From: Mustelus asterias
Lineage: Eukaryota
Direction of reading: 5' to 3'
DNA: 64,000 nt
Assembly (NCBI RefSeq): GCF_964213995.1
Contig: NW_027590476.1
Coordinates: 62,001 to 126,000 of the forward strand
The position numbers and the translations under genes are program-made. How positions within the stretch are numbered: position 1 is the first letter of the stretch; each line of letters begins with the position of its first letter. The notes under the pieces were generated by a model. That model ran no database searches and was not told where the DNA came from. It saw only the letters and a list, made by a program, of their open reading frames with translations. Positions 9,468 through 62,597 of this stretch are shown in pieces.

Positions 9468-9945
9468 ATGGGAATCCTTCTTGTTTTCACCGTGTGTGCC
9501 TATTTACCCCGTGAGTACCGATCAAACTAACCCACATTGTGTGGATTGAACATAATGCCCCAGTCCATCTCAATTACAGACACTGTCTGGGGTTTAGCCC
9601 CGTTGTGCGGTTCGGCTCTGATTGTCCATTAAACTCTCTGTGCTTAATTTCCAGGATGTTTCAGTCAGTCAGTGACTCAAAGCCCGGCAGCGGCGACCAG
9701 GAAGGAGTGTCAGTCTCTCACCATCACCTGTGTTTTCAATGGTGTTTACGATTTAGAAAATGGCCATTTCTTCAGACAAACCCAAACTGGGACAGAGCGG
9801 GAGCGGATCTCCAGCGGAGGGAGGTTTGTTGTGTCGGTGAATGAAGCAGAAAAGACATTTTCGCTGGAAATTCGGGACATGAGAATTGAAGACACCGCCA
9901 CCTATTACTGTAAAGCTCAGCACTGGTACTACGCACATGGGACAC
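9468..9945 (+). CDS. NAR-TCR V segment (VNAR-like N-terminal domain), intact, with a D-like 3' tail
   Basis: Leader exon 9468-9510 (MGILLVFTVCAYLP, GTGAGT). V exon 9655-9945: QSVTQSPAAATRKECQSLTITCVF...FFRQTQTGTERERISSGGRFVVSVNEAEKTFSLEIRDMRIEDTATYYCKAQHWYYAHGT. VNAR-type CDR2 deletion and an extra FR1 Cys. RSS is CACAGTG, 12 nt, ACAAATACT (9946-9973). Confidence 0.9.
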
Positions 9946-10343
9946 CACAGTGGAAGAGAGGAGAACAAATACTTAAATATTTCTGAACAAGCGAAGCAAT
10001 AATTTCCAGGACACGGACCACAGCTTGTCGGGTTGTTGTTATTATCGTTGCAACATGATTTCATTTCGTTGTAATTTCCTCCCTTCAGTTATCTTTCTTT
10101 AACTTTTTTATTCCATTTCTACGAAGCGTCCATCTCCGCTCCGTTCCTGGGCCGTTTTGCCAAGAGTTCAGAGTGTCCCAAGGAACAGTTTGTTCCAATG
10201 GGAATTATAAAACTATCATACTTCATTATTGATCTATAACCCCTGAATAATTGATAAACGCTGACTATTCGGTATTTTTTTCCCCATCAGTTTGAGGTGT
10301 CAGTCATTCTTGTACTGGGCTGACTGAGAGTGCGGACACCGTG

Positions 10344-10396
10344 GGGAGAGTGGAGATTTACAGATGGGTCTGGGACGGTGGTGACTGTCTCAGCTG
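10344..10396 (+). CDS. NAR-TCR J segment
   Basis: Reads GEWRFTDGSGTVVTVSA followed by a phase-1 GTAAGT donor. Preceded by a 23-RSS: CATTCTTGT, 23 nt, CACCGTG (10305-10343). The DGxGT motif is IgNAR-like. Confidence 0.88.
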
Positions 10397-12453
10397 GTAA
10401 GTGACTCCAAATCCCCCCGTGTTGCAGAATGTCTTGGTTCGTTTTCGCCGTCAGTTCATTCTTGTAGTCTGCCTCTCTTCAATCCTCTGTGACTACAATA
10501 GCAGCGTGGGGGAAGGGGGGTTTCTGTGGAAGATTTTCAATTGCAGTTTTAGATTTGGGAGCATAATAGGAAACTGGAGTCGGGTCCACATTTTGAAGCT
10601 ATGACTTCTGTCCTAGTGTCAACTTTGATTCCCTCTGTGGCTCTTACGAAGGGTCATCCCGACTGGAAACGTTGACTCTATTCTGTCTCCACAGATGCTG
10701 TCAGACCTGTTGAGGTTTGCCAACATTTTTCAGTTTTTGTTGTTGATATAAATCTTTAGCATTAATTTATAGGTTCATTAATGTACGTGTGGAGAAAACG
10801 ATTCAGATTAAAGAAACATTTAATATAATGCCAGTGAGATAAAAGAAAAAGAAATTAGGAGGCATGTGGAGGGCGCTACCACATGGAGTGGTTGCAGTAA
10901 ATGGCGTAAGGAATTTTTCTGACGGCGTGAAAAATCGAGGAGGGAGAAGGACACAGTGCTCAGTGTACACAGGTTTCGTTAGGGATCGAGTGTGAGAGGG
11001 ACGTAGGTACGTGTGCAGTGCAAGGACAAGTGTACTGTGAGCCGACTGGCCTACTTCTGTTCTGTAGAGTCTATATAATATAAAATACAGAGAGGATTCT
11101 GCCCAGAAAGCATGGGGAACAATCAACCAATGGGTGGAATGAATTGAAAATCTCAAGCACCTTGAAAAGGCAATTTTCACAGTGAGTAACAGTGAGCAAG
11201 TCAATCGGGGAAACTGAGCATGCTGATCTCAACTGATATTGGAGAGTGTATGGGACAGGTTCTCATGGTGGCAAGAAATCGCAAGCAGCACAAAGAGAAC
11301 AACTCAGATTTAGAAATCCACTGGTATTAACTGAAAATCATTCTAATATATAATATAAATTGTAGAATCGATGGACGAAACTGTGCAAAGAGTTAAACGG
11401 TAGTCAAAGGTTGATCTTTGACACAGATATGCAATATCATTTTCGCATAATTAGTTTCGCTGGGCGAGTATGACCATCTTCGCCTGAATCTTGATGTGAC
11501 CCAGGATATAAAAAGGTAGGGTTACTCTCAGTCAATCAACTCTGGACAGCAATTGTTATAGTGAGAAAAGTGAACTTTCATGTAATTTCCTCAGGTTTGT
11601 AAATCGCCAATATACACAGAAGCAGACACTAAATATAAAACATAAAATGAGAAACCGGAAAAGGACATCATTCTGACCAAGTGGCGATTCTTTGCAGGTG
11701 CTACTGAACTTTACCTATGTTACCTTCCTACTCTTCAAAACCACCGGAATTCTAATCTGATTCTGTATGTTTCTTCCATTTGCGGTTTTAAAATGAGTGC
11801 TGAATATGTTCCCAAAATAACATCTCCAAAGGATCCAATTGAGCAAAATTCGCTGTGTGATAAAATAAAAATCATCTAAATATTTGCCCCTCGCTCTTTT
11901 GCCATTTGTTCAATTCATTCTCGGGATGTGGGTGTTCCTAATTGCCTTTGAACTGGGTGGCTTGTGAAGCCCATTTAGAGGGCATTTAAGAGGCAACCAT
12001 ATTGTTGTGGACCTGGAGTCACATGGCGGCCAGACCAGATACGAATGGCAGATTTTCTTCCCGAAAGGACCTTCGAGAAACAGATGTGGTTTTAACGACA
12101 AGTGGCAATGGTTCCATGGTCATCATTAGACATTGCTTCAACATGTTTTTTTTATTGAATTAATTCAAGATTGAATTGAAATTCAAATTTCACCATCGGC
12201 CGTGGTACCGTTCGTACCCGCGTCCCCAGGGCATTCCGTGGATTACTAAATCTCTGGATTAACTAATCCAGTGACAATACCACTATGGCACCGTCTCCTC
12301 AATTATAGTTAATACATGTCGAACACCCTTCAATGAAACAATTGCGGCAAAATGGTCAGCTATTGACGCGATTATATTTCCCCGGGCAAACTAACATGCA
12401 ACGCAGGTAATGGCATCATAGAAATATTGTGCATTATTTTATTGGTTCTGCAG

Positions 12454-12759
12454 AATCCAGTTCATCTGTGGCACAGAATTCGTCTCTCCAAACGTGTGCT
12501 GCTGGCGACACCATTACTTTAAACTGCGAATATCAGGGATGTTGTCAACACACACTGTACTGGTACCGTCACTCTCCAGGACAAACCCCAAAATACCTGC
12601 TTAAGAGACACACATCAGGCGAGGAGAGCAAAGAAAACGCTGCCGGGGCGAGAATTTCTGCTTTTGTCGACCCAGTCGAAAAAATCAGCTGGTTAATGAT
12701 CTCCAAGCTGCAATTGAGCGACTCCGCTGTGTATTACTGTGCACTGAGTCGGCACACAG
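12454..12759 (+). CDS. TRDV: Supporting TCR-delta V of NAR-TCR (leaderless), intact
   Basis: Phase-1 acceptor TTCTGCAG is in frame with the J donor at 10397. Reads SSSVAQNSSLQTCAAGDTITLNCEYQGCCQHTLYWYRH...LSDSAVYYCALSRHT, with CDR1 cysteines. No leader exon seen. 23-RSS at 12760-12798. Confidence 0.9.
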
Positions 12760-13064
12760 CACAGTGATGCAGAACAGGGAGAGAGCCGTACAGAAACTTG
12801 AACATGGTGAGGCTTACAGACACAGTGAGACAGAACAGGGAGAGAGCTGTACAGAAACTTGAACATGGTGAGGCTTACAGACACAGTGATGCAGAAGACG
12901 GAGAGAGCCGTACAGAAACTTGAACATGGTGAGGCTTACAGACACAGTGAGACAGAACACGGAGAGAGCTGGACAGAAACCTGAACATGGTGAGGATTTC
13001 AGACACAGTGATAAAGAACAAGGAGAGAGTTGTGCAAAAACATGGACATGGTGAGGACTACAAG
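12760..13064 (+). repeat. Tandem array of five 61-bp units, each a complete 23-RSS
   Basis: CACAGTG at 12760, 12821, 12882, 12943 and 13004. Each is followed by a 23-nt spacer, a nonamer (ACAGAAACT x3, ACAGAAACC, GCAAAAACA) and a 22-nt linker TGAACATGGTGAGGCTTACAGA. Confidence 0.95.
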
Positions 13065-13066
13065 AA

Positions 13067-13376
13067 TCTGTAATTCATCTTCAGGCTTTTGTTCAGCTCT
13101 CCGTGTTCTGTATCACTATGTCTGTAATCCTCACAATGTTCAGGTCTCCGTCTAGCTGTTTCCGTGTTCGAAATCACTGTGCCTGTAAACTTCACCATAT
13201 TCAGGTCTTTGTACAGTTCTCTCCGTGTTCTTCATCACAATGTCTGTAATTCTCACCATGTTCAGGTTTCTGGAAAGCTGTTTCCGTGTACCAAATCACT
13301 CTGTCTGTAATCATCACCATGTTCAGGTTTTTGTAAAGCTTTTTCCGTCTACCAAATCACTGTGTCTGTAATCATC
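13067..13376 (-). repeat. Inverted tandem array of the same 61-bp RSS unit (five copies; a sixth lies beyond the Penelope insertion at 15789-15837)
   Basis: Plus-strand heptamer positions 13114, 13175, 13236, 13297 and 13358. The unit at 13326-13364 is a perfect GGTTTTTGT-23-CACTGTG; the others are degenerate. Confidence 0.9.
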
Positions 13377-15798: not shown

Positions 15799-16143
15799 GG
15801 TTTTTGTACAGCTGTCTCCGTGTTCTGTGACACTATGCTGTGCGCCAACTCATTTCACAGTAATAAACAGCGGAGTCCGCTCAGTTGAAGTTTGGAGATC
15901 TTTAACCGGCTGATTTTGACTGAAGATTCGATAGAAGCAGAAATTCTCCCCGCGACAGCGTTGCTTTATTCTCGTCTCCTGAAGTGTGTGTCTGAAGCAG
16001 GCACTTCGGAGTCTGTCCTCGGGTCTGACGGTACCAGTGTACTGTGTCCTGACAGAGACCTGAATATTCATAGCTTAACAGAACCGTGTCGCCGGCAGCA
16101 GATGTTTGTAGAAGGGAACTTGGTGACACAGGTGAGCTGGAAT
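15799..16143 (-). pseudogene. Supporting TCR-delta V pseudogene (inverted cassette)
   Basis: SSPVSPSSLLQTSAAGDTVLLSYEYSGLCQDTVHWYRQ... is a paralogue of 12454-12759. Cys23>Tyr and frameshifts. RSS is CATAGTG, 23 nt, ACAAAAACC. Confidence 0.9.
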
Positions 16144-20198: not shown

Positions 20199-20250
20199 CG
20201 GCTGTGACAGTCACCACCGCCCCAGACCCATCTGCAATCTCCATTCTCCC
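20199..20250 (-). other. NAR-TCR J segment of the inverted cassette
   Basis: Reads GRMEIADGSGAVVTVTA with a GTAGGT donor. 23-RSS at 20251-20289 with a perfect heptamer. Confidence 0.85.
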
Positions 20251-20623
20251 CACAGTGTCAGCGCTCTCAGTCAGCCCAGCACAAGAATGACTGACACCTC
20301 AAACTGCCGAGCAGCCATTACCGAGCAATCAGTGTTTCTCGATTATTCAGGGGATTTGAATCCATAATGAACATTGGTTGTTTAAAAAAAACCTCATTGG
20401 ATCAAACTTTTCCTTGTGACTCTCTGAGTTCCTGGTAAAATATCCCAGGAACAGGAGCAGAGATGCAAGATTCTTATTAATGGCGAAAAACCTGGAAGAA
20501 TTATAACTGATAGGTGGAAATTAAAATGAAATTAAACTAGATTGAACTGGGAATAACATCAAACCGACAAGTCAAGTTACCGAACATGGGAATTGCTGGG
20601 AATTACTGTTTTGATTATCCTGA

Positions 20624-21132
20624 GGTTTTTGTCGAACTCTCTCCGAATGCGGTGTCCTATGTGAGTAGTACCAGTGCTGAACGTTACAGTAATAGGTGGC
20701 ACTGTCTTCAACTTTCACATCCCGAATTTCCAGTGAAAATGTCTTTTCTGCTTTATTCACCAATACAATAAATCTCCCTCCGCTGGTGACCCGCTCCTGC
20801 TCCATCCCGGTCTGGATTTGTCTGAAAAAATGACCATTTTCTAAATCATGAACTTCACAGAAAACACAGGTGATGGTAAGAGACTGACACTCCTTCCTGG
20901 TCAACGCTGCCAGGCTCTGTGTCACTGGCTGATTGAAAGATCCTGGAAATTAAACACAGAGAGTTTAATGGACCATCAGAGCCGAACCAAACAAAGGGGC
21001 TAAAATCCGAGACAGTGTCTGTAATTGAGATGGACACGAGGCAGCTTTATATTCAATCCACACAATGTGGGTTAGTTTGATCGGTACTCATCAGGGTAAA
21101 CAGGCACACAGGGTGAAAACAAGGATTCCCAT
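20624..21132 (-). pseudogene. NAR-TCR V pseudogene (inverted cassette)
   Basis: V exon 20652-20942 is open (QPVTQSLAALTRKECQSLTITCVF...YYCNVQHWYYSHRT). The leader donor is destroyed (CCC TGA TGAGT) and the heptamer is mutated: CGCATTC, 12 nt, ACAAAAACC. Confidence 0.9.
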
Positions 21133-47440: not shown

Positions 47441-48646
47441 TTACTCGTGAATTCTTTGGTGTCTAAGCAGGTAGGATGACCGAGTGAATCTCTTCCCACT
47501 CTCAGAGCAGCTGAATGGCCTCTCCCCAGTGTGAGCTCGCTTGTGTCTCAGCAGGGTGGAGGACTGAATGAATCCCTTCCCACATTCAGAGCAGGTGAAT
47601 GGCTTTTCCCCAGTGTGGGTGCGCTGGTGTAGAATGAGATCATATGATCGCCTGAACCCAGTCCCACAGTGAGAGCACCTGAACGGTCTCTCATCAGTGT
47701 GAACACGTTGATGGGAAGTCAGTTCACCAGAACTTTTATAGCACTTCTCACAGTCAGAGCATTTAAAAGGTCTCTCCCCGGTGTGAACTCGCTGGTGTGT
47801 CAATAGGTGGGATGACCGAGTGAATCCCTTCCCACAGTAGGAGCAGGTGAATGGCCTCTCCCCAGTGTGAACTCGCTGGTGTTGCAGCAGGCGGGATGAC
47901 CGAGTGAATCCCTTTCCACACTCGGAGCAGGTGAATGGCCTTTCCCCAGTGTGGATGCGCTGGTGTAGAATGAGATCATATGATCGCTTGAACCCAGCCC
48001 CGCAGTGAGAGCACCTGAATGGTCTCTCATCAGTGTGAACATGTTGATGGGACATCAGTTCATCAGAACTTTTATAGCACTTCTCACAGTCAGAGCATTT
48101 AAAAGGTCTCTCCCCAGTGTGAACTCGCTGGTGTGTCAATAGTTGGGATGACCGAGTGAATCCCTTTCCACACGCGGAGCAGGTGAATGGTCTCTCCCCA
48201 GTGTGAACTCGCTGGTGTACAGTGAGGTTATGTGAATGCTGGAACCCAATCCCACAGTGGGAGCACCTGAATGGTCTCTCATCAGTGTGAACACGTTGAT
48301 GGGACATCAGTTCCCAAGAACTTTTGAAGCACTTCCCACAGTCTGAGCATTGGAAAGGTCTCTCATCAGTGTGAACTCGCTGATGAGTAAATAGGTGGGA
48401 TGACTGAGTGAATCCCTTCCCACACTCAGAGCAGGTGAACGGCCTCTCCCCAGTGTGACTGCGCCGATGAGTTTCCAGCTGGGATGGGGAATTAAATTCC
48501 TTCCCACAGTCCACACATTTACACAGTTTTTCCATGGAGTGACTGCACTTACGTTTTGACAGGCCAGAGGATCGGCTGAAGCCTCGTCCACACACAGAAC
48601 CCGTGTACGGATTCTCCCCACTGGGAATAGTGCTTTTTCCTTCCAT
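47441..48646 (-). CDS. C2H2 zinc-finger protein (12 intact + 2 degenerate fingers)
   Basis: 401-aa ORF from the ATG at 48646 with TGERPF/TDERPF linkers. Acceptor near 48754; upstream exons not resolved. Confidence 0.9.
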
Positions 48647-53227: not shown

Positions 53228-54204
53228 AACATTGCTGATGAGAATTTTAATTTACTGACTTGGGAATTAATTCTCGGGAATAGTCATTCTGAAAATGACC
53301 ATTAAAATGTGTTTTAATTTACCACATGATGCCAGATTTCAGTTTGCATTTCAAAATTGAATTGAGAATGTCTGGGAGCAAATGGTAAAATGAGGTTTGA
53401 GACACCAGCTGCAATTATTTTCTGTGACTGATGATACCTTTGTGCCTGTGCAGGAGGTAATTCCCCTGCTGTTGTGGCACAAATAAAATGGAGCCTTTCC
53501 GAGGAACAGGCCCATGTTAATGGTCACCGTGGTGTTTCATTGGTGAGCAGAGCACATGTGACTATTGTGGTAACAACAGAGTCAGTGGGGCTGCACGTCC
53601 CCTGACTTGGAAGGAAAATAATTGACTCCTTGATTGTACTCTCAATCTGTACATGGTCTGGAGGACTGAATCCAGCTGGAGGGAGAGGGAGCTGGGCTCA
53701 GAGTGGAGATGAGACAATGAGTTTGATTTCAGCTCAGGGACAAGAGAGAGTGTGGGATGGGGATGACAGCTCAAGATAAATAAGATGGAGAAATGTTTCG
53801 TGGAAACTGAAATTGTCTGTTCTCAAGTAATTTTTTAAAACTCTTTTTGCAGGGAACTACAAGAGGAGGATTCACAGACAGGAAACAAACTAAACTTCAG
53901 ATCAAAGTCTGACAGAACCATTCGATTCATCATGACCTGAATATGATTGCTTTTGACAGTGGAGGGAGAAATCATTCCCTGTTTTGTCAGTGGGAGAAAA
54001 TTTCAAAATTCAATGTGACAGAAAAAGAACTGAGACACACACACACACACTCCAGTGAACTGACTGTGAATCGAGCTTTAACCAGTAACACAGCCTGAAA
54101 AACATCACACCATTCACAGTGGGGAGAAACCATACACATGGTGTGTATGTGGATGAGGCTTCAACTAATCATCCAACCTGGAGAGACAGAAGGACACCAG
54201 CACC

Positions 54205-55155
54205 ATGGACAAACCGTGGAAATGTGAGGATTGTGGTAAAGGATTCAATTATCCATCCCGGTTGGAAACCCATCGACACGGTCACATTGGGGCTGGGAAA
54301 ATGAAGAAACCATGGAAATGTGATGATTGTGGTAAAGGATTCAATTATCCATACTTGCTGGAAAACCATAGACACAGTCACACTGGAGAGAGGCCATTCA
54401 TCTGTTCTGTGTGTGGGAAACGATTCACTACCTCATCCCACCTGCTGTTACACCAGCGAACTCACACTGAGGAGAGGCCGTTCAGCTGCTCCACCTGTGG
54501 AAAGGGGTTCTCATGTTCATCCAACCTCAGTGCACATCAGCGAGTTCACACTGGGGAGACATTGTTCACCTGCTCCTTATGTGGGAAGGATTTTGCTGGG
54601 CCATCCGGTCTTTGGTCACACCAGCGAATTCACACAGGAGAGAAGCCATTCACCTGTTCTGTGTGTGGTAAGAGATTCACTCTGTCATCTAACCTGCTGT
54701 CACACCAGCGAGTTCACACAGAGGAGAGACCGTTCAGCTGCACTTCCTGTGGAAAGAGGTTCAGGTCTTCATCCAACCTCAGTGCACACAAGCGAGTTCA
54801 CACTGGGGAAAGGCCGTTCACCTGTTCCACGTGTGGGAGGGAATTCACCAATTCACCCGGCCTCCTGTCACATCAGCGAATTCACACTGAGGAGAAACCA
54901 TTTATTTGCACATACTGTGGAAAGAGTTTCAGGCAGTTATCAATCCTCACTGCACATCAACGCACTCACACTGGGGAGAGACCATTCACTTGCTCCATGT
55001 GTGGGAAGGGATTCACTCAGTCTGGCAGCCTGCATTTACATGAGCTCATCCACACTGGGGAGAGGCCATTCACCTGCTCTGTGTGTGGGAAGGGATACAC
55101 TCGGTCATCCCACTTGCTGACACATCTGCAAGTTCACAATTGCCTGCAGGAGTAG
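54205..55155 (+). CDS. C2H2 zinc-finger protein (11 fingers)
   Basis: 316-aa ORF with repeated C-x2-C...H-x3-H and TGE(R/K)PF linkers. Acceptor at ~53852 is followed by decayed upstream finger sequence. Confidence 0.9.
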   Translation: MDKPWKCEDCGKGFNYPSRLETHRHGHIGAGKMKKPWKCDDCGKGFNYPYLLENHRHSHTGERPFICSVCGKRFTTSSHLLLHQRTHTEERPFSCSTCGKGFSCSSNLSAHQRVHTGETLFTCSLCGKDFAGPSGLWSHQRIHTGEKPFTCSVCGKRFTLSSNLLSHQRVHTEERPFSCTSCGKRFRSSSNLSAHKRVHTGERPFTCSTCGREFTNSPGLLSHQRIHTEEKPFICTYCGKSFRQLSILTAHQRTHTGERPFTCSMCGKGFTQSGSLHLHELIHTGERPFTCSVCGKGYTRSSHLLTHLQVHNCLQE

Positions 55156-56646: not shown

Positions 56647-57149
56647 GATATTCATACCCAGTCTTGCTCAGTTGTGTGGGAGGCTGAATTCCTTTTTGGT
56701 GCTGGCAGCTAATTAGTGGAAAGTATCACTCGTGTAACCACGACATAGCCGCAGAATGAAACAGATTAGTGTTCCCTCTGTATTGTGCAGCCTTGTGATT
56801 GTGCTAAAGGCCATCACTTTCAGATCTGAAAAGTGCCTGGGTCAAGGTCAAATTACCCCAGAAAGGGAAAATTTCTCTCAAATCTGAAGCACCAGGTTAA
56901 ACAAATCATTTCACACTGAAACACATCTTCAACGTTGCGGTAGTTTGTTCAGTTACACACTTGGTGGTCACGTGACTCTGGTTGTAGCATTCCTGAGCCT
57001 CATTGGAGGGATTCCTCACATGAGCCGAGTTTGAGGAGAGTATCTCTGGCCTCCAGTGATGCAGCCGCTGAATCTATTCCTGGAAAAAACACATTTGGAA
57101 TATTGTGATAATGCTGTCTGAATCCATCAGGACAATTTTGTATTCAAGT

Positions 57150-60100
57150 GTGGGGGGGATAATGTTCACTGTTTTATATTCGGGTCTGGGGGGGGATAAT
57201 GTTCACTGTTTTATATTCGGGTCTGGGGGGGGATAATGTTCACTGTTTTATATTCGGGTCTGGGGGAGAATATTCACAGTTTTATATTCGGGTCTGGGGG
57301 ATAATGTTCACTGTTTTATATTCGGGTCTGGGGGGGATAATGTTCACTGTTTTATATTCGGGTCTGGGGGGGATAATGTTCACTGCTTTATATTCGGGTC
57401 TGGGGGATAATGTTCACTGTTTTATATTCGGGTCTGGGGGGGATAATGTTCACTGTTTTATATTCGGGTCTGGGGGGGATAATGTTCACTGTTTTATATT
57501 CGGGTCTGGGGGTGATAATGTTCACTGTTTTATATTCGGGTCTGGGGGGAATAATGTTCAGTGTTTTATATTCGGGTCTGGGGGGGATAATGTTCACTGT
57601 TTTATATTCGGGTCTGGGGGGGATAATGTTCACTGTTTTATATTCGGGTCTGGGGGATAATGTTCACTGTTTTATATTCGCGTCTGGGGGGGATAATGTT
57701 CACTGTTTTATATTCGGGTCTGGGGGGGATGATGTTCACTGTTTTATATTCGGGTCTGGGGGATAATGTTCACTGTTTTATATTTGGGTCTGGGGGATAA
57801 TGTTCACATGATTTATATTCGGGTCTGGGGGGAGAATGTTACATAAGAACATAAGAAATAGGAGCAGGAGTAGGCCGTCTAGCCCCTCAAGCCTGCCCCG
57901 CCATTCAATAAGATCATGGCTGATCTGAAGTGGATTAGTTCCACTTACCCGCCTGATCCCTATAACCCCTAATTCCCTTACCGATCAGGAATCCATCTCT
58001 CCGTGATTTAAACATATTCAACGAGGTAGCCTCCACCACTTCAGTGGGCAGAGAATTCCAGAGATTCACCACCCTCTGAGAGAAGAAGTTCCTCCTCAAC
58101 TCTGTCCTAAACTGACCCCCCCTTTATTTTGAGGCTGTGCCCTCTAGTTCCAGTTTCCTTTCTAAGTGGAAAGAATCTCTCCACCTCTACCCTATCCAGC
58201 CCCTTCATTATCTTATAGGTCTCTATAAGATCCCCCCTCAGCCTTCTAAATTCCAATGAGTACAAACCCAGTCTGCTCAGTCTCTCCTCATAATCAACAC
58301 CCCTCATCTCTGGTATCAACCTGGTGAACCTTCTCTGCACTCCCTCCAAGGTCAATATATCCTTCCGCTAATAAGGGGACCAATACTGCACACAGTATTC
58401 CAGCTGCGGCCTCACCAATGCCCTGTACAGATGCAGCAAGACATCTCTGCTTTTATATTCTGTCCCCCTTGCGATATAGGCCAACATCCCATTTGCCTTC
58501 TTGATCACCTGTTTCACCTGCAGACTGGGTTTTTGCGTCTCATGCACAAGAACCCCCAGGTCACTGCTTCATATACGGATCTGGAGGATAATGTTCACTG
58601 TTTTATATTCGGGTCTGGGGGGGTTAATGTTCACTGTTTTATATTCGGGTCTGGGGGGGGATAATGTTCAATGTTTTATATTTGGGTCTGGGGGGGGATA
58701 ATATTCACTGTTTTATATTTGGATCTGGGGGGGATAATGTTCACTGTTTTATATTCGGGTCTGGGAGGGATAATGTTCACTGTTTTATATTTGGGTCTGG
58801 GGGGGATAATGTTCACTGTTTTATATTCGGATCTGGGGGGGATAATGTTCACTGTTTTATATTCGGGTCTGGGGGGGATAATGTTCACTGTTTTATATTC
58901 GGATCTGGGGGGGATAATGTTCACTGTTTTATATTCGGGTCTGGGGGATAATGTTCACTGTTTTATATTCGGGTCTGGGGGGCATAATGTTCACTGTTTT
59001 ATATTCGGGTCTGGGGGGGATAATGTTCACTGTTTTATATTCGGGTCTGGGGGGGATAATGTTCACTGTTTTATATTCGGATCTGGGGGATAATGTTCAC
59101 TGTTTTATATTCGGGTCTGGGGGGGGGATAATGTTCACTGTTTTATATTCGGGTCTGGGGGGGATAATGTTCAATGTTTTATATTTGGGTCTGGGGGCGG
59201 ATAATATTCACTGTTTTATATTCGGATCTGGGGGGGATAATGTTCGCTGTTTTATATTCGGGTCTGAGGGATAATGTTCACTGTTTTATATTTGGGTCTG
59301 GGGGGGATAATGTTCACTGTTTTATATTCGGATCTGGGGGGGATAATGTTCATTGTTTTACATTCGGGTCTGAGGGATAATGTTCACTGTTTTATATTTG
59401 GGTCTGGGGGGGATAATGTTCACTGTTTTATATTTGGGTCTGGGGGGGATAATGTTCATTGTTTTATATTCGGGTCTGGGGGGGATAATGTTCACTGTTT
59501 TATATTTGGGTCTGGGGGATATTGTTCACTGTTTTATATTCGGGTCTGGGGGGGATAATGTTCACTGTTTTATATTCGGGTCTGGGGGGGATAATGTTCA
59601 CTGTTTTATATTCCGGTCTGGGGGATAATGTTCACTGTTTTATATTCGGATCTGGGGGGGATAATGTTCACTGTTTTATATTCGGATCTGGGGGGGATAA
59701 TGTTCATTGTTTTATATTCGGGTCTGAGGGATAATGTTCACTGTTTTATATTTGGGTCTGGGGGGGATAATGTTCACTGTTTTATATTCGGGTCTGGGGG
59801 GATAATGTTCATTGTTTTATATTCGGGTCTGGGGGGGATAATGTTCATTGTTTTATATTCGGGTCTGGGGGGGATAATGTTCATTGTTTTATATTCGGGT
59901 CTGGGGGGGATAATGTTCATTGTTTTATATTCGGATCTGGGAGGGATAATGTTCACTGTTTTATATTGGGGTCTGGGGGCGATAATGTTCACTGTTTTAT
60001 ATTCGGGTCTGGGGGGGGATAATGTTCATTGTTTTATATTCGGGTCTGGGGAGGATAATGTTCATTGTTTTATATTCGGATCTGGGAGGGATAATGTTCA

Positions 60101-62597
60101 CTGTTTTATATTGGGGTCTGGGGGATAATGTTCACTGTTTTATATTCGGGTCTGGGGGGGATAATGTTCACTGTTTTATATTCGGGTCTGGGGGGGATAA
60201 TTTCACTGTTTTATATTTGGGTCCGGGGGGGATAATGTTCACTGTTTTATATTCGGGTCTGGGGGATAATGTTCACTGTTTTATATTCGGGTCGGGGGGG
60301 GGATAATGTTCACTGTTTTATATTCGGGTCTGGGGCGGGATAATGTTCACTGTTTTATATTCGCGTCTGGGGGGAATAATGTTCATTGTTTTATATTTGG
60401 GTCAGGGGGAATAATGTTCACTGTTTTATATTCGGGTCTGGGGGGATAATGTTCATTGTTTTATATTTGCATCTGGGGGATAATGTTCACTGTTTTTATT
60501 TGGGTCTGGGGGGGATAATGTTCACTGTTTTATATTCGGGTCTGGGGGGGACAATGTCCACTGTTTTATATTTGGGTCTGGGGGATAATGTTCAGTGTTT
60601 TATATTCGGGACTGGGGGATAATGTTCACTATTTTATATTCCGGTCTGGGGGAAGAATGTTCATTACTTTATATTCGGGTCTGGGAGATAATGTTCACTG
60701 TTTTATATTCGGGTCTGGGGGGGATAATGTTCACTGTTTTATATTCGGGTCTGAGGGGATAATGTTCACTGTTTTATGTTCGGGTCTGGGGCGGGATAAT
60801 GTTCACTGTTTTATATTCGGGTCTGGGGGGAATAATGTTCATTGTTTTATATTTGGGTCAGGGGGAATAATGTTCACTGTTTTATATTCGGGTCTGGGGG
60901 GATAATGTTCATTGTTTTATATTTGCGTCTGGGGGATAATGTTCACTGTTTTTATTTGGGTCTGGGGGACAATGTCCACTGTTTTATATTTGGGTCTGTG
61001 GGATAATGTTCAGTGTTTTACGTTCGGGACTGGGGGATAATGTTCACTATTTTATATTCCGGTCTGGGGGAAGAATGTTCATTACTTTATATTCGGGTCT
61101 GGGAGATAATGTTCACTGTTTTATATTCGGGTCTGGGGGGATAATGTTCACTGTTTTATATTCGGGTCTGAGGGGATAATGTTCACTGTTTTATATTCGT
61201 GTCTGAGGGATAATGTTCACTGTTTTATATTTGGGTCTGGGGGATAATGTTCACTGTTTTATATTCGGGTCTGGGGGATAATGTTCACTGTTTTATATTC
61301 GGGTCTGGGGGGGATAATGTTCACTGTTTTATATTCAGGTCTGGGGGGAGGATAATGTTCACTGTTTTATATTCGGGTCTGGGGGGAATAATGTTCATTG
61401 TTTTATATTCGGGTCTGGGGGGGATAATGTTCACTGTTTTATATTCGGGTCTGGGGGGATAATTTTCACTGTTTTTATTTGGGTCTGGTGGACAATGTCC
61501 ACTGTTTTATATTTGGGTCTGGGGGATAATGTTCAGTGTTTTATATTCGGGACTGGGGGATAATGTTCACTATTTTATATTCCGGTCTGGGGGGAGAATG
61601 TTCATTACTTTATATTCGGGTCTGGGGGGGATAATGTTCACTGTTTTATATTCGGGTCTGAGGGGATAATGTTCACTGTTTTATATTCGGGTCTGGGGGG
61701 GATAATGTTCACTGTTTTATATTTGGGTCTGGGGGATAATGTTCGCTGTTTTATATTCAGATCTGGGGGGGATAATGTTCATTGTTTTATATTCGGTTCT
61801 GAGGGATAATGTTCACTGTTTTATATTCGGGTCTGGGGGGGATAATGTTCACTGTTTTATATTCGGATCTGGGGGGGATAATGTTCATTGTTTTATATTC
61901 GGATCTGGGGGGGATAATGTTCATTGTTTTATATTCGGGTCTGGGGGGGATAATGTTCACTGTTTTATATTCGGGTCTGGGGGGGATAATGTTCACTGTT
62001 TTTATTTGGGTCTGGGGGACAATGTCCACTGTTTTATATTTGGGTCTGGGGGATAATGTTCAGTGTTTTATATTCGGGACTGGGGGATAATGTTCACTAT
62101 TTTATATTCCGGTCTGGGGGGAGAATGTTCATTACTTTATATTCGGGTCTGGGAGATAATGTTCACTGTTTTATATTTGGGTCTGGGGGGGGATAATGTT
62201 CACTGTTTTATATTCGGGTCTGGGGGGATAATGTTCACTGTTTTATATTCGGGTCTGGGGGGGATAATGTTCACTGTTTTATATTCGGGTCTGGGGGGGA
62301 TAATGTTCACTGTTTTATATTCGGGTCTGGGGGAGATAATGTTCACTGTTTTATATTCGGGTCTGGGGGGGATAATGTTCACTGTTTTATATTCGGGTCT
62401 GGGGGGGATAATGTTCACTGTTTTACATTCGGGTCTGGGGGGATAATGTTCACTGTTTTATATTCGGGTCTGGGGGATAATGTTCACTGTTTTATATTCG
62501 GGTCTGGGGGGGATAATGTTCACTGTTTTATATTCGGGTCTGGGGGAGAATGTTCACTGTTTTATATTCGGGTCTGGGGGAGATAATGTTCACTGTC
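57150..62597. repeat. G-rich satellite, unit ATAATGTTCACTGTTTTATATTCGGGTCT + G5-9 (mode 36 bp), well over 100 copies
   Basis: Read directly; it explains the repetitive ORFs (GGDNVHCFIFGS)n. Confidence 0.97.
57841..58561 (-). mobile_element. 5'-truncated CR1 LINE inserted in the satellite
   Basis: (CATAAGAA)n tail and LEGVQRRFTRLIP...RLRGDLIETYK; splits a satellite unit at AATGTT|CACTG. Confidence 0.92.

Follow-up and report, generated by a model that had tools for sequence, protein, structure and literature searches.

The window (i.e., the whole 64,000-nt stretch of DNA that was analysed) contains a NAR-TCR cassette in which the V segment ends in an RSS with a 12-nt spacer and lies opposite a J whose RSS has a 23-nt spacer. 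This raises the question of whether V and D have been fused in the inherited DNA and, if so, how the fusion came about and whether the resulting gene still makes a receptor. NAR-TCR was reportedly described by Criscitiello in 2006 as the doubly rearranging TCR-delta of cartilaginous fish. To our knowledge, germline joins are well known in shark antibody genes and barely recorded for T-cell receptors. Below we argue that the window cassette is almost certainly a real germline V-D join. We also hold, with fair confidence, the overall reading that the V-D fusion is inherited and likely goes back to a single ancient RAG-type join in the germ line, that the fused unit then multiplied, and that one 12/23 join would be enough for intact copies to complete the tip domain.

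Anatomy of the window cassette

The window cassette has the parts of a NAR-TCR as given in the available portions of PMC1845163 and PMC12227049, namely a leader, a NAR-type V with a Cys in the a-b loop and without the Trp of WYRK, a J, and an in-frame supporting V-delta with a Cys in CDR1. Among named proteins the closest match, at 98% identity, carries a houndshark label. The features of the cassette, and of a paralogue in the same window, are as follows:

9468-9510, plus strand: leader exon of 43 nt, phase 1, with a GT donor at 9511 and an in-frame splice to the V exon
9655-9933, plus strand: NAR-TCR V proper, up to the V-encoded KAQHWYY end, with the a-b loop Cys (KECQ) and FFRQ in place of WYRK (hallmarks as in the available part of PMC1845163)
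9934-9937, plus strand: junction bases CACA, with the V end, N addition, D or the first bases of the lost V heptamer as candidate sources
9938-9945, plus strand: putative D remnant TGGGACAC, with a 7-nt word in common with a free D end of the same genome (p ~0.006-0.009)
9946-9973, plus strand: 12-RSS, heritage of the D 3' side
9974-10304, no strand: former D-J spacer, without a D
10305-10343, minus strand: J 23-RSS, its heptamer with an A4G change in the window copy (3 of 12 subfamily A copies)
10344-10396, plus strand: NAR-TCR J (GEWRFTDGSGTVVTVSA), GT donor at 10397
12454-12759, plus strand: supporting V-delta, open, with an acceptor in frame with J and a Cys in CDR1
12760-13042, plus strand: five tandem 23-RSS with a 61-nt period, behind the supporting V
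13143-13364, minus strand: inverted 23-RSS copies, one of them perfect (13326-13364), in a J-like orientation toward the V-D 12-RSS; possible decoys
20199-21132, minus strand: dead paralogous V-D-joined cassette (leader donor lost, heptamer CGCATTC)
15838-16143, minus strand: the paralogue's broken supporting V (frame broken, heptamer CATAGTG)

The V exon (9655-9945) is in frame with the leader and ends in YYCKAQHWYYAHGT; past YYC it reads KAQHWYYAHGT and is followed by CACAGTG, a 12-nt spacer and ACAAATACT. Read on the minus strand, the J signal has the heptamer CACGGTG and the nonamer ACAAGAATG. These readings bear out an earlier note on this DNA, which had described a V with a 12-RSS opposite a 23-RSS J and no RSS-flanked D within 9974-10304: at up to 4 mismatches, no RSS-like site was found between V and J besides the V-end and J signals. 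With up to 2 mismatches allowed, a consensus 12-RSS matched the V-end signal and nothing else in the window. Shuffled windows contained on average 0.06 such matches (6 of 100 shuffles had one), and the motif by itself is only modestly beyond chance; its weight comes from its location at the exact V end and from the same register in 39 copies. Starting at 12454, the supporting V-delta combines its in-phase acceptor, open frame and CDR1 Cys with a 23-RSS. A precise VD-J join would be one base out of frame (the V-D end is in phase 1 and J starts one base before its frame), so trimming or addition would be needed.

The paralogue has the QHWYYSHRT tail and the 12-nt spacer before ACAAAAACC that the earlier note had used to confirm the register, but with its altered heptamer and lost leader splice donor it is dead. 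The remaining V segments read in the window have spacers of 22-24 nt, again as described; a further V with a "broken 15-nt" spacer was not found among them. Elsewhere in the window, 47447-48632 and 54108-55138 hold two blocks of repeats with an 84-nt period, in opposite directions and with zinc-finger-like spacing, and 57132-62596 is a long minisatellite with a period of ~35 nt.

Origin and age of the V-D junction

The same genome holds 15 unjoined cassettes with separate segments, ordered V-22RSS, 12-D-12 and 22- or 23-RSS-J, which makes the window cassette a derived variant. We found that the window V-J spacer aligned with the D-J spacers of all 15 unjoined cassettes at scores of 100-139 (shuffles reached at most 41), whereas alignments with their V-D spacers scored 19-30. 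The alignment extends from the end of D via the heptamer, the spacer and an AAATAC-type nonamer to J. Specifically, the window cassette lacks the V 22-RSS, the ~400-nt V-D spacer and the 5' 12-RSS of D, and it retains the 3' end of D, its 12-RSS and the D-J spacer. Given that the V-J spacer matches the D-J and not the V-D spacers, the V-D interval is gone together with both of its signals, i.e., V and D have almost certainly been joined in the germline. The earlier note's proposal of a germline V-D fusion that left the D 3' 12-RSS behind is thus well supported, since unjoined cassettes have homologous counterparts of both that RSS and the entire spacer.

The tail itself is more ambiguous. Unjoined V ends reach 22-24 nt past YYC and already encode WY in 7 of 22 cases (KADYWYY, KAQHWYG, KAQYWYW, KAHYWYW); HWYY is V-encoded, and its proposed derivation from D did not hold. 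Beyond the V end, the window tail runs 10-12 nt further than any unjoined V end; this extension comprises the putative D remnant and 2-4 bases of ambiguous origin. Alignment with a free D and its 3' RSS, which the earlier note had suggested as a check, gave a match for the RSS and the spacer; in the tail only the last ~8 nt are D-like, with the 7-nt word in common, and no free D with exactly the remnant's end was found in the genome searched. The junction holds 0-4 bases of ambiguous origin and no P bases were seen there. Its start, CACA(TGGG), resembles the lost V heptamer plus spacer, and because the ambiguous bases match the start of that heptamer they leave room for a deletion without RAG. 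If few bases were added, this would fit the germline joints in the available part of PMC2193156. Since both breakpoints coincide with signal borders or miss them by a few bases, leaving 0-4 bases unassigned, the V-D join was quite probably made by RAG.

Searches of genome assembly G000 and of fetched stretches (four listed matches being left out) gave 39 assembly copies with the joined tail and one and the same junction, in six subfamilies: A with 12 copies (including the window cassette), B with 15, C with 6, D with 3, E with 2 and F with 1; these are counts of assembly copies, which may include haplotype duplicates and may be inflated on small scaffolds. In DNA trees (identical rows merged, midpoint roots), the joined copies are set apart by a branch supported at 100/100 in the spacer-plus-J tree, where subfamilies D and E are absent, and at 88/86 in the V tree, in keeping with a fusion ahead of cassette multiplication. 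The V-D junction is present in the loose ends of contigs from two sequenced samples, X1 and X3, and an X3 contig covers V, junction and RSS (9848-10227). An ENA protein, P0065, has the same tail with read-through into the RSS at 77-80% identity to its best G000 match. With one junction in copies grouped by the trees, in the X1 and X3 contigs, and in P0065, the V-D join is to be read as inherited and old, and probably as a single event.

Other searches and a protein tree add the following. A protein search with the P0065 tail matched only P0065 itself; among 64 longer matches no gene model from outside the houndsharks had the WYY-x-HGT tail, which gene models and 90% clusters can mask; and a metagenome scan for the V-D junction gave 0 matches. 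The joined Vs are not grouped in the protein tree (4 changes, mostly unresolved) and the P0065 V body falls with another V family; this tree lost six outgroup rows to a motif filter, and its resolution is too low to root or date the join. The P0065 V body is of the GGFFARP type, which hints at V-body exchange or at an older form of the joined cassette. V bodies may have been exchanged between families.

Three other origins have to be weighed against an inherited join made by RAG. If the cassette were natively D-less, i.e., a V-J cassette of the light chain or platypus second TCR-mu domain type, its tail would be a normal V end. The V-encoded HWYY agrees with this, but NAR-TCR Vs do not normally end in this tail and a 12-RSS, a possibility that the earlier note had itself raised: a 22-spacer RSS was found on all 22 non-joined V ends parsed, the window's 12-RSS and spacer are those of a D, and the tail outruns every unjoined V end. 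We therefore regard a natively D-less cassette as very improbable. Still less credible is that half-rearranged T-cell DNA entered the assembly. Single-copy structures resembling rearrangements do exist there, and small-scaffold copy counts may be inflated, but a somatic origin is refuted by a junction shared by 39 copies in six subfamilies whose spacers have diverged by up to ~0.4 substitutions per site; five of these copies lie on one 20-Mb scaffold, and the contigs of two samples and P0065 speak against it as well.

An ordinary deletion of the V-D interval, repaired at a short shared word (TGGG, found in the V-RSS spacer and in D), would produce the same fused V-D. The tail begins CACATGGG and unjoined V signals begin CACAGTGATGGG or CACCGTGATGGG, and published shark germline joints keep no RSS sequence in the available part of PMC2193156, both of which speak for such a deletion. 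By contrast, a chance loss of 400 nt would have to begin no more than 4 nt from the V border and finish inside a D of 13-19 nt; V ends of 22-24 nt, often terminating in CA, explain CACA without any RSS; and several other joins at signal borders occur in the same locus. We thus consider the deletion unlikely and prefer a join by RAG.

Under this preferred origin, RAG would have joined V (by its 22-RSS) to D (by its 5' 12-RSS) in a germ-line cell, and the fused V-D unit would then have duplicated. Assembly in a T cell would take a single step for the tip domain, pairing the D-derived 12-RSS with the J 23-RSS, and a join of the supporting V to a D-delta/J-delta some distance away; the spliced product would be leader-VDJ-Vdelta-Cdelta, a three-domain delta chain. 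Lying 12 nt from the cut, the V-encoded HWYY would mostly be spared trimming, leaving the first half of CDR3 nearly fixed. The earlier note had proposed a semi-invariant receptor; reduced diversity is the most that the joined anatomy would allow, because J junction diversity and the whole rearrangement of the supporting V-delta would remain.

Copy state, neighbouring units and present use

Intact copies (i.e., those with a start codon, splice sites, an open V, a CAC heptamer, an open J and a supporting V with both cysteines) account for 14 of the 39, 8 in subfamily A and 6 in C. The other 25 carry a defect: 21 belong to dead subfamilies and 4 are among the 12 copies of A. All 18 copies of A and C retain the CAC of the 12-RSS; among the 21 others, 18 have lost it. 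Between A and C, dN/dS was 0.29-0.37 in 5 of 5 pairs (Fisher p 0.003-0.005 on 2 pairs), with dS of 0.23-0.28, dN of ~0.08 and a spacer divergence of ~0.41; within C it was 1.8, on 11 changes. These ratios may partly reflect exchange of V bodies. Contig depth in X1, which is no copy number, was ~97 on the V-J spacer and 25-34 on its neighbours, a hint that the 12 assembled A copies may correspond to a smaller number of real loci.

Further cassette types were also present, namely three with D joined to J, two inversion products, three V genes that have neither a D nor a J within 4 kb, and a single broken type. The apparent joins at the locus, other than the V-D junction, comprise three D-J joins, one junction of supporting V to D-delta on two scaffolds and one signal joint. 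They fit germline RAG activity; the single-copy ones may be somatic. The supporting-V junction was seen at L140 (G000:C436, ~213700) and L142 (G000:C119, ~553650), where a supporting V-delta runs directly into a D-delta end and the D 23-RSS is kept ~330 nt before the first J. As the two scaffolds differ in their NAR V genes yet share an identical junction, another V-D join in the germline is the likely explanation. The D-J joins are those of L104 (2073-2085), L105 and L106. The L104 junction is crossed, with no mismatch, by an X1 contig (depth 14) that has 30 letters to the left of the junction, one fewer than the bridging rule asks for; X4 shows the unjoined D end. At L098 (G000:C110, ~113300-114500), present as a single copy, a V coding end is joined to a J signal in inverted orientation, and ~820 nt further on lies a signal joint that is perfect and head-to-head. 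At L097 (G000:C122, ~393150) a NAR D is joined to an inverted supporting-V coding end, the product expected if a D 3' 12-RSS pairs with the 23-RSS of a supporting V. The broken cassette, L102 (G000:C437, ~309000), has a J signal with a 12-nt spacer and a V interrupted by a copy of the D region, with similar matches on C138 and C108.

TCR-delta-like C exons were found at 19 places in G000 (71-100% to the query), three of them on C71 (7.14, 11.04 and 12.27 Mb). Of the 18 NAR cassettes that are unjoined or D-J-joined, 15 have such an exon 16-58 kb downstream. The unit on C71 has the order NAR V-D-J, supporting V, D, five J and C, resembling TCR-mu clusters.

Whether the V-D-joined family is used today is, on this evidence, an evenly balanced matter. 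No rearranged VD-J copy was matched in the assembly. A gene model considered as a rearranged VD-J product, P0004 (KAQHCVHLRSWRFT), was rejected, as its EDPATYYC variant is shared with the unrearranged L010 and its junction is absent from the assembly. No C-delta-like exon was found within 60 kb of any of the 18 A and C copies, compared with 13 of 15 unjoined cassettes that have one so close; 5 of the 18 share a scaffold with such an exon, 0.24-3.8 Mb away. Inverted 23-RSS stand behind the supporting V in 12 of 12 A cassettes and in 0 of 6 C cassettes, and those in A copies could out-compete the weaker J signal.

These data could be read to mean that the join is real but that the family consists of relics stranded by segmental duplication, their frames kept intact by recent copying or by exchange with working Vs, and giving no receptor. 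The 25 defective copies, the distance of C-delta, the decoy signals of subfamily A and the absence of a rearranged copy from the assembly all point this way. Set against them are a dN/dS of ~0.3 despite the diverged spacers, and the retention of leader, splice sites, both RSS, J and supporting V in two lineages. Moreover, the NAR-TCR models of the great white in table S1 of PMC12227049, as available, are scattered over 8.4-17.1 Mb in both directions; with models spread across ~9 Mb, long-range joining is plausible and the distance from C would not be unusual. A family of stranded relics thus seems to us a serious possibility, if the less probable one.

Germline-joined receptors in other vertebrates

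Compared with an ordinary NAR-TCR, a cassette with V and D fused in the germline needs one join for its tip domain rather than two. Shark IgH is an established case of germline V-D joining (PMC2193156, PMC4279169, as far as available), and the window cassette resembles the partly joined (VD-J) shark IgH clusters and the joined NS4 light chains described there in having a fused VD, a retained D 3' signal, few or no added bases, and split and joined genes side by side. It differs from them in encoding a T-cell receptor chain and in the ambiguous CACA of its junction. Among T-cell receptors, the available text of PMC7615758 names TCR-mu as the only joined case, and that of PMC12698447 reports pre-joined V-J in newt TRD. 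The window cassette shares with marsupial TCR-mu V-mu-j and newt TRD V-J a germline-joined TCR variable sequence, TCR-mu also being a three-domain chain. However, in these sources V-mu-j and newt V-J are fully joined, and V-mu-j is an inner domain and probably retrotransposed, whereas the window join is partial, concerns the outer domain, keeps the leader intron and would still need RAG. A retrotransposed, fully joined exon of the V-mu-j type was rejected for the window cassette, which keeps its leader intron and a separate J with its own RSS.

The label "NARTCR V(gj)V(gi)V" given to great white LOC121270133 in table S1 of PMC12227049 suggests that a germline-joined NAR-TCR V had already been noticed; no definition or analysis of "(gj)" was found in the available text of that paper. 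P0002, a model with the same NCBI description as LOC121270133, has a different CDR3. No description of a V-D-joined NAR-TCR was found in literature searched by title and abstract opening, nor by term in the elephant shark supplement, and an earlier description is possible.

A partial, intron-keeping V-D join beside unjoined relatives would offer direct evidence of V(D)J-type joining in the germline at TCR loci, and the two forms make a natural pair (two joins versus one) for testing 12/23 order and repertoire limits. Tentatively, we suggest that germline RAG activity may have repeatedly rewritten the TCR-delta locus, joining V to D in the NAR tip, D to J in other cassettes and supporting V to D-delta in still others. 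The old V-D-joined family could then be a selected, working class of NAR-TCR whose CDR3 has a nearly fixed aromatic first half, perhaps a gamma-delta receptor of an innate-like or early-life kind that related sharks have in common. A tip domain in which half of CDR3 is fixed would, if expressed, provide a handle on the ligands of NAR-TCR.
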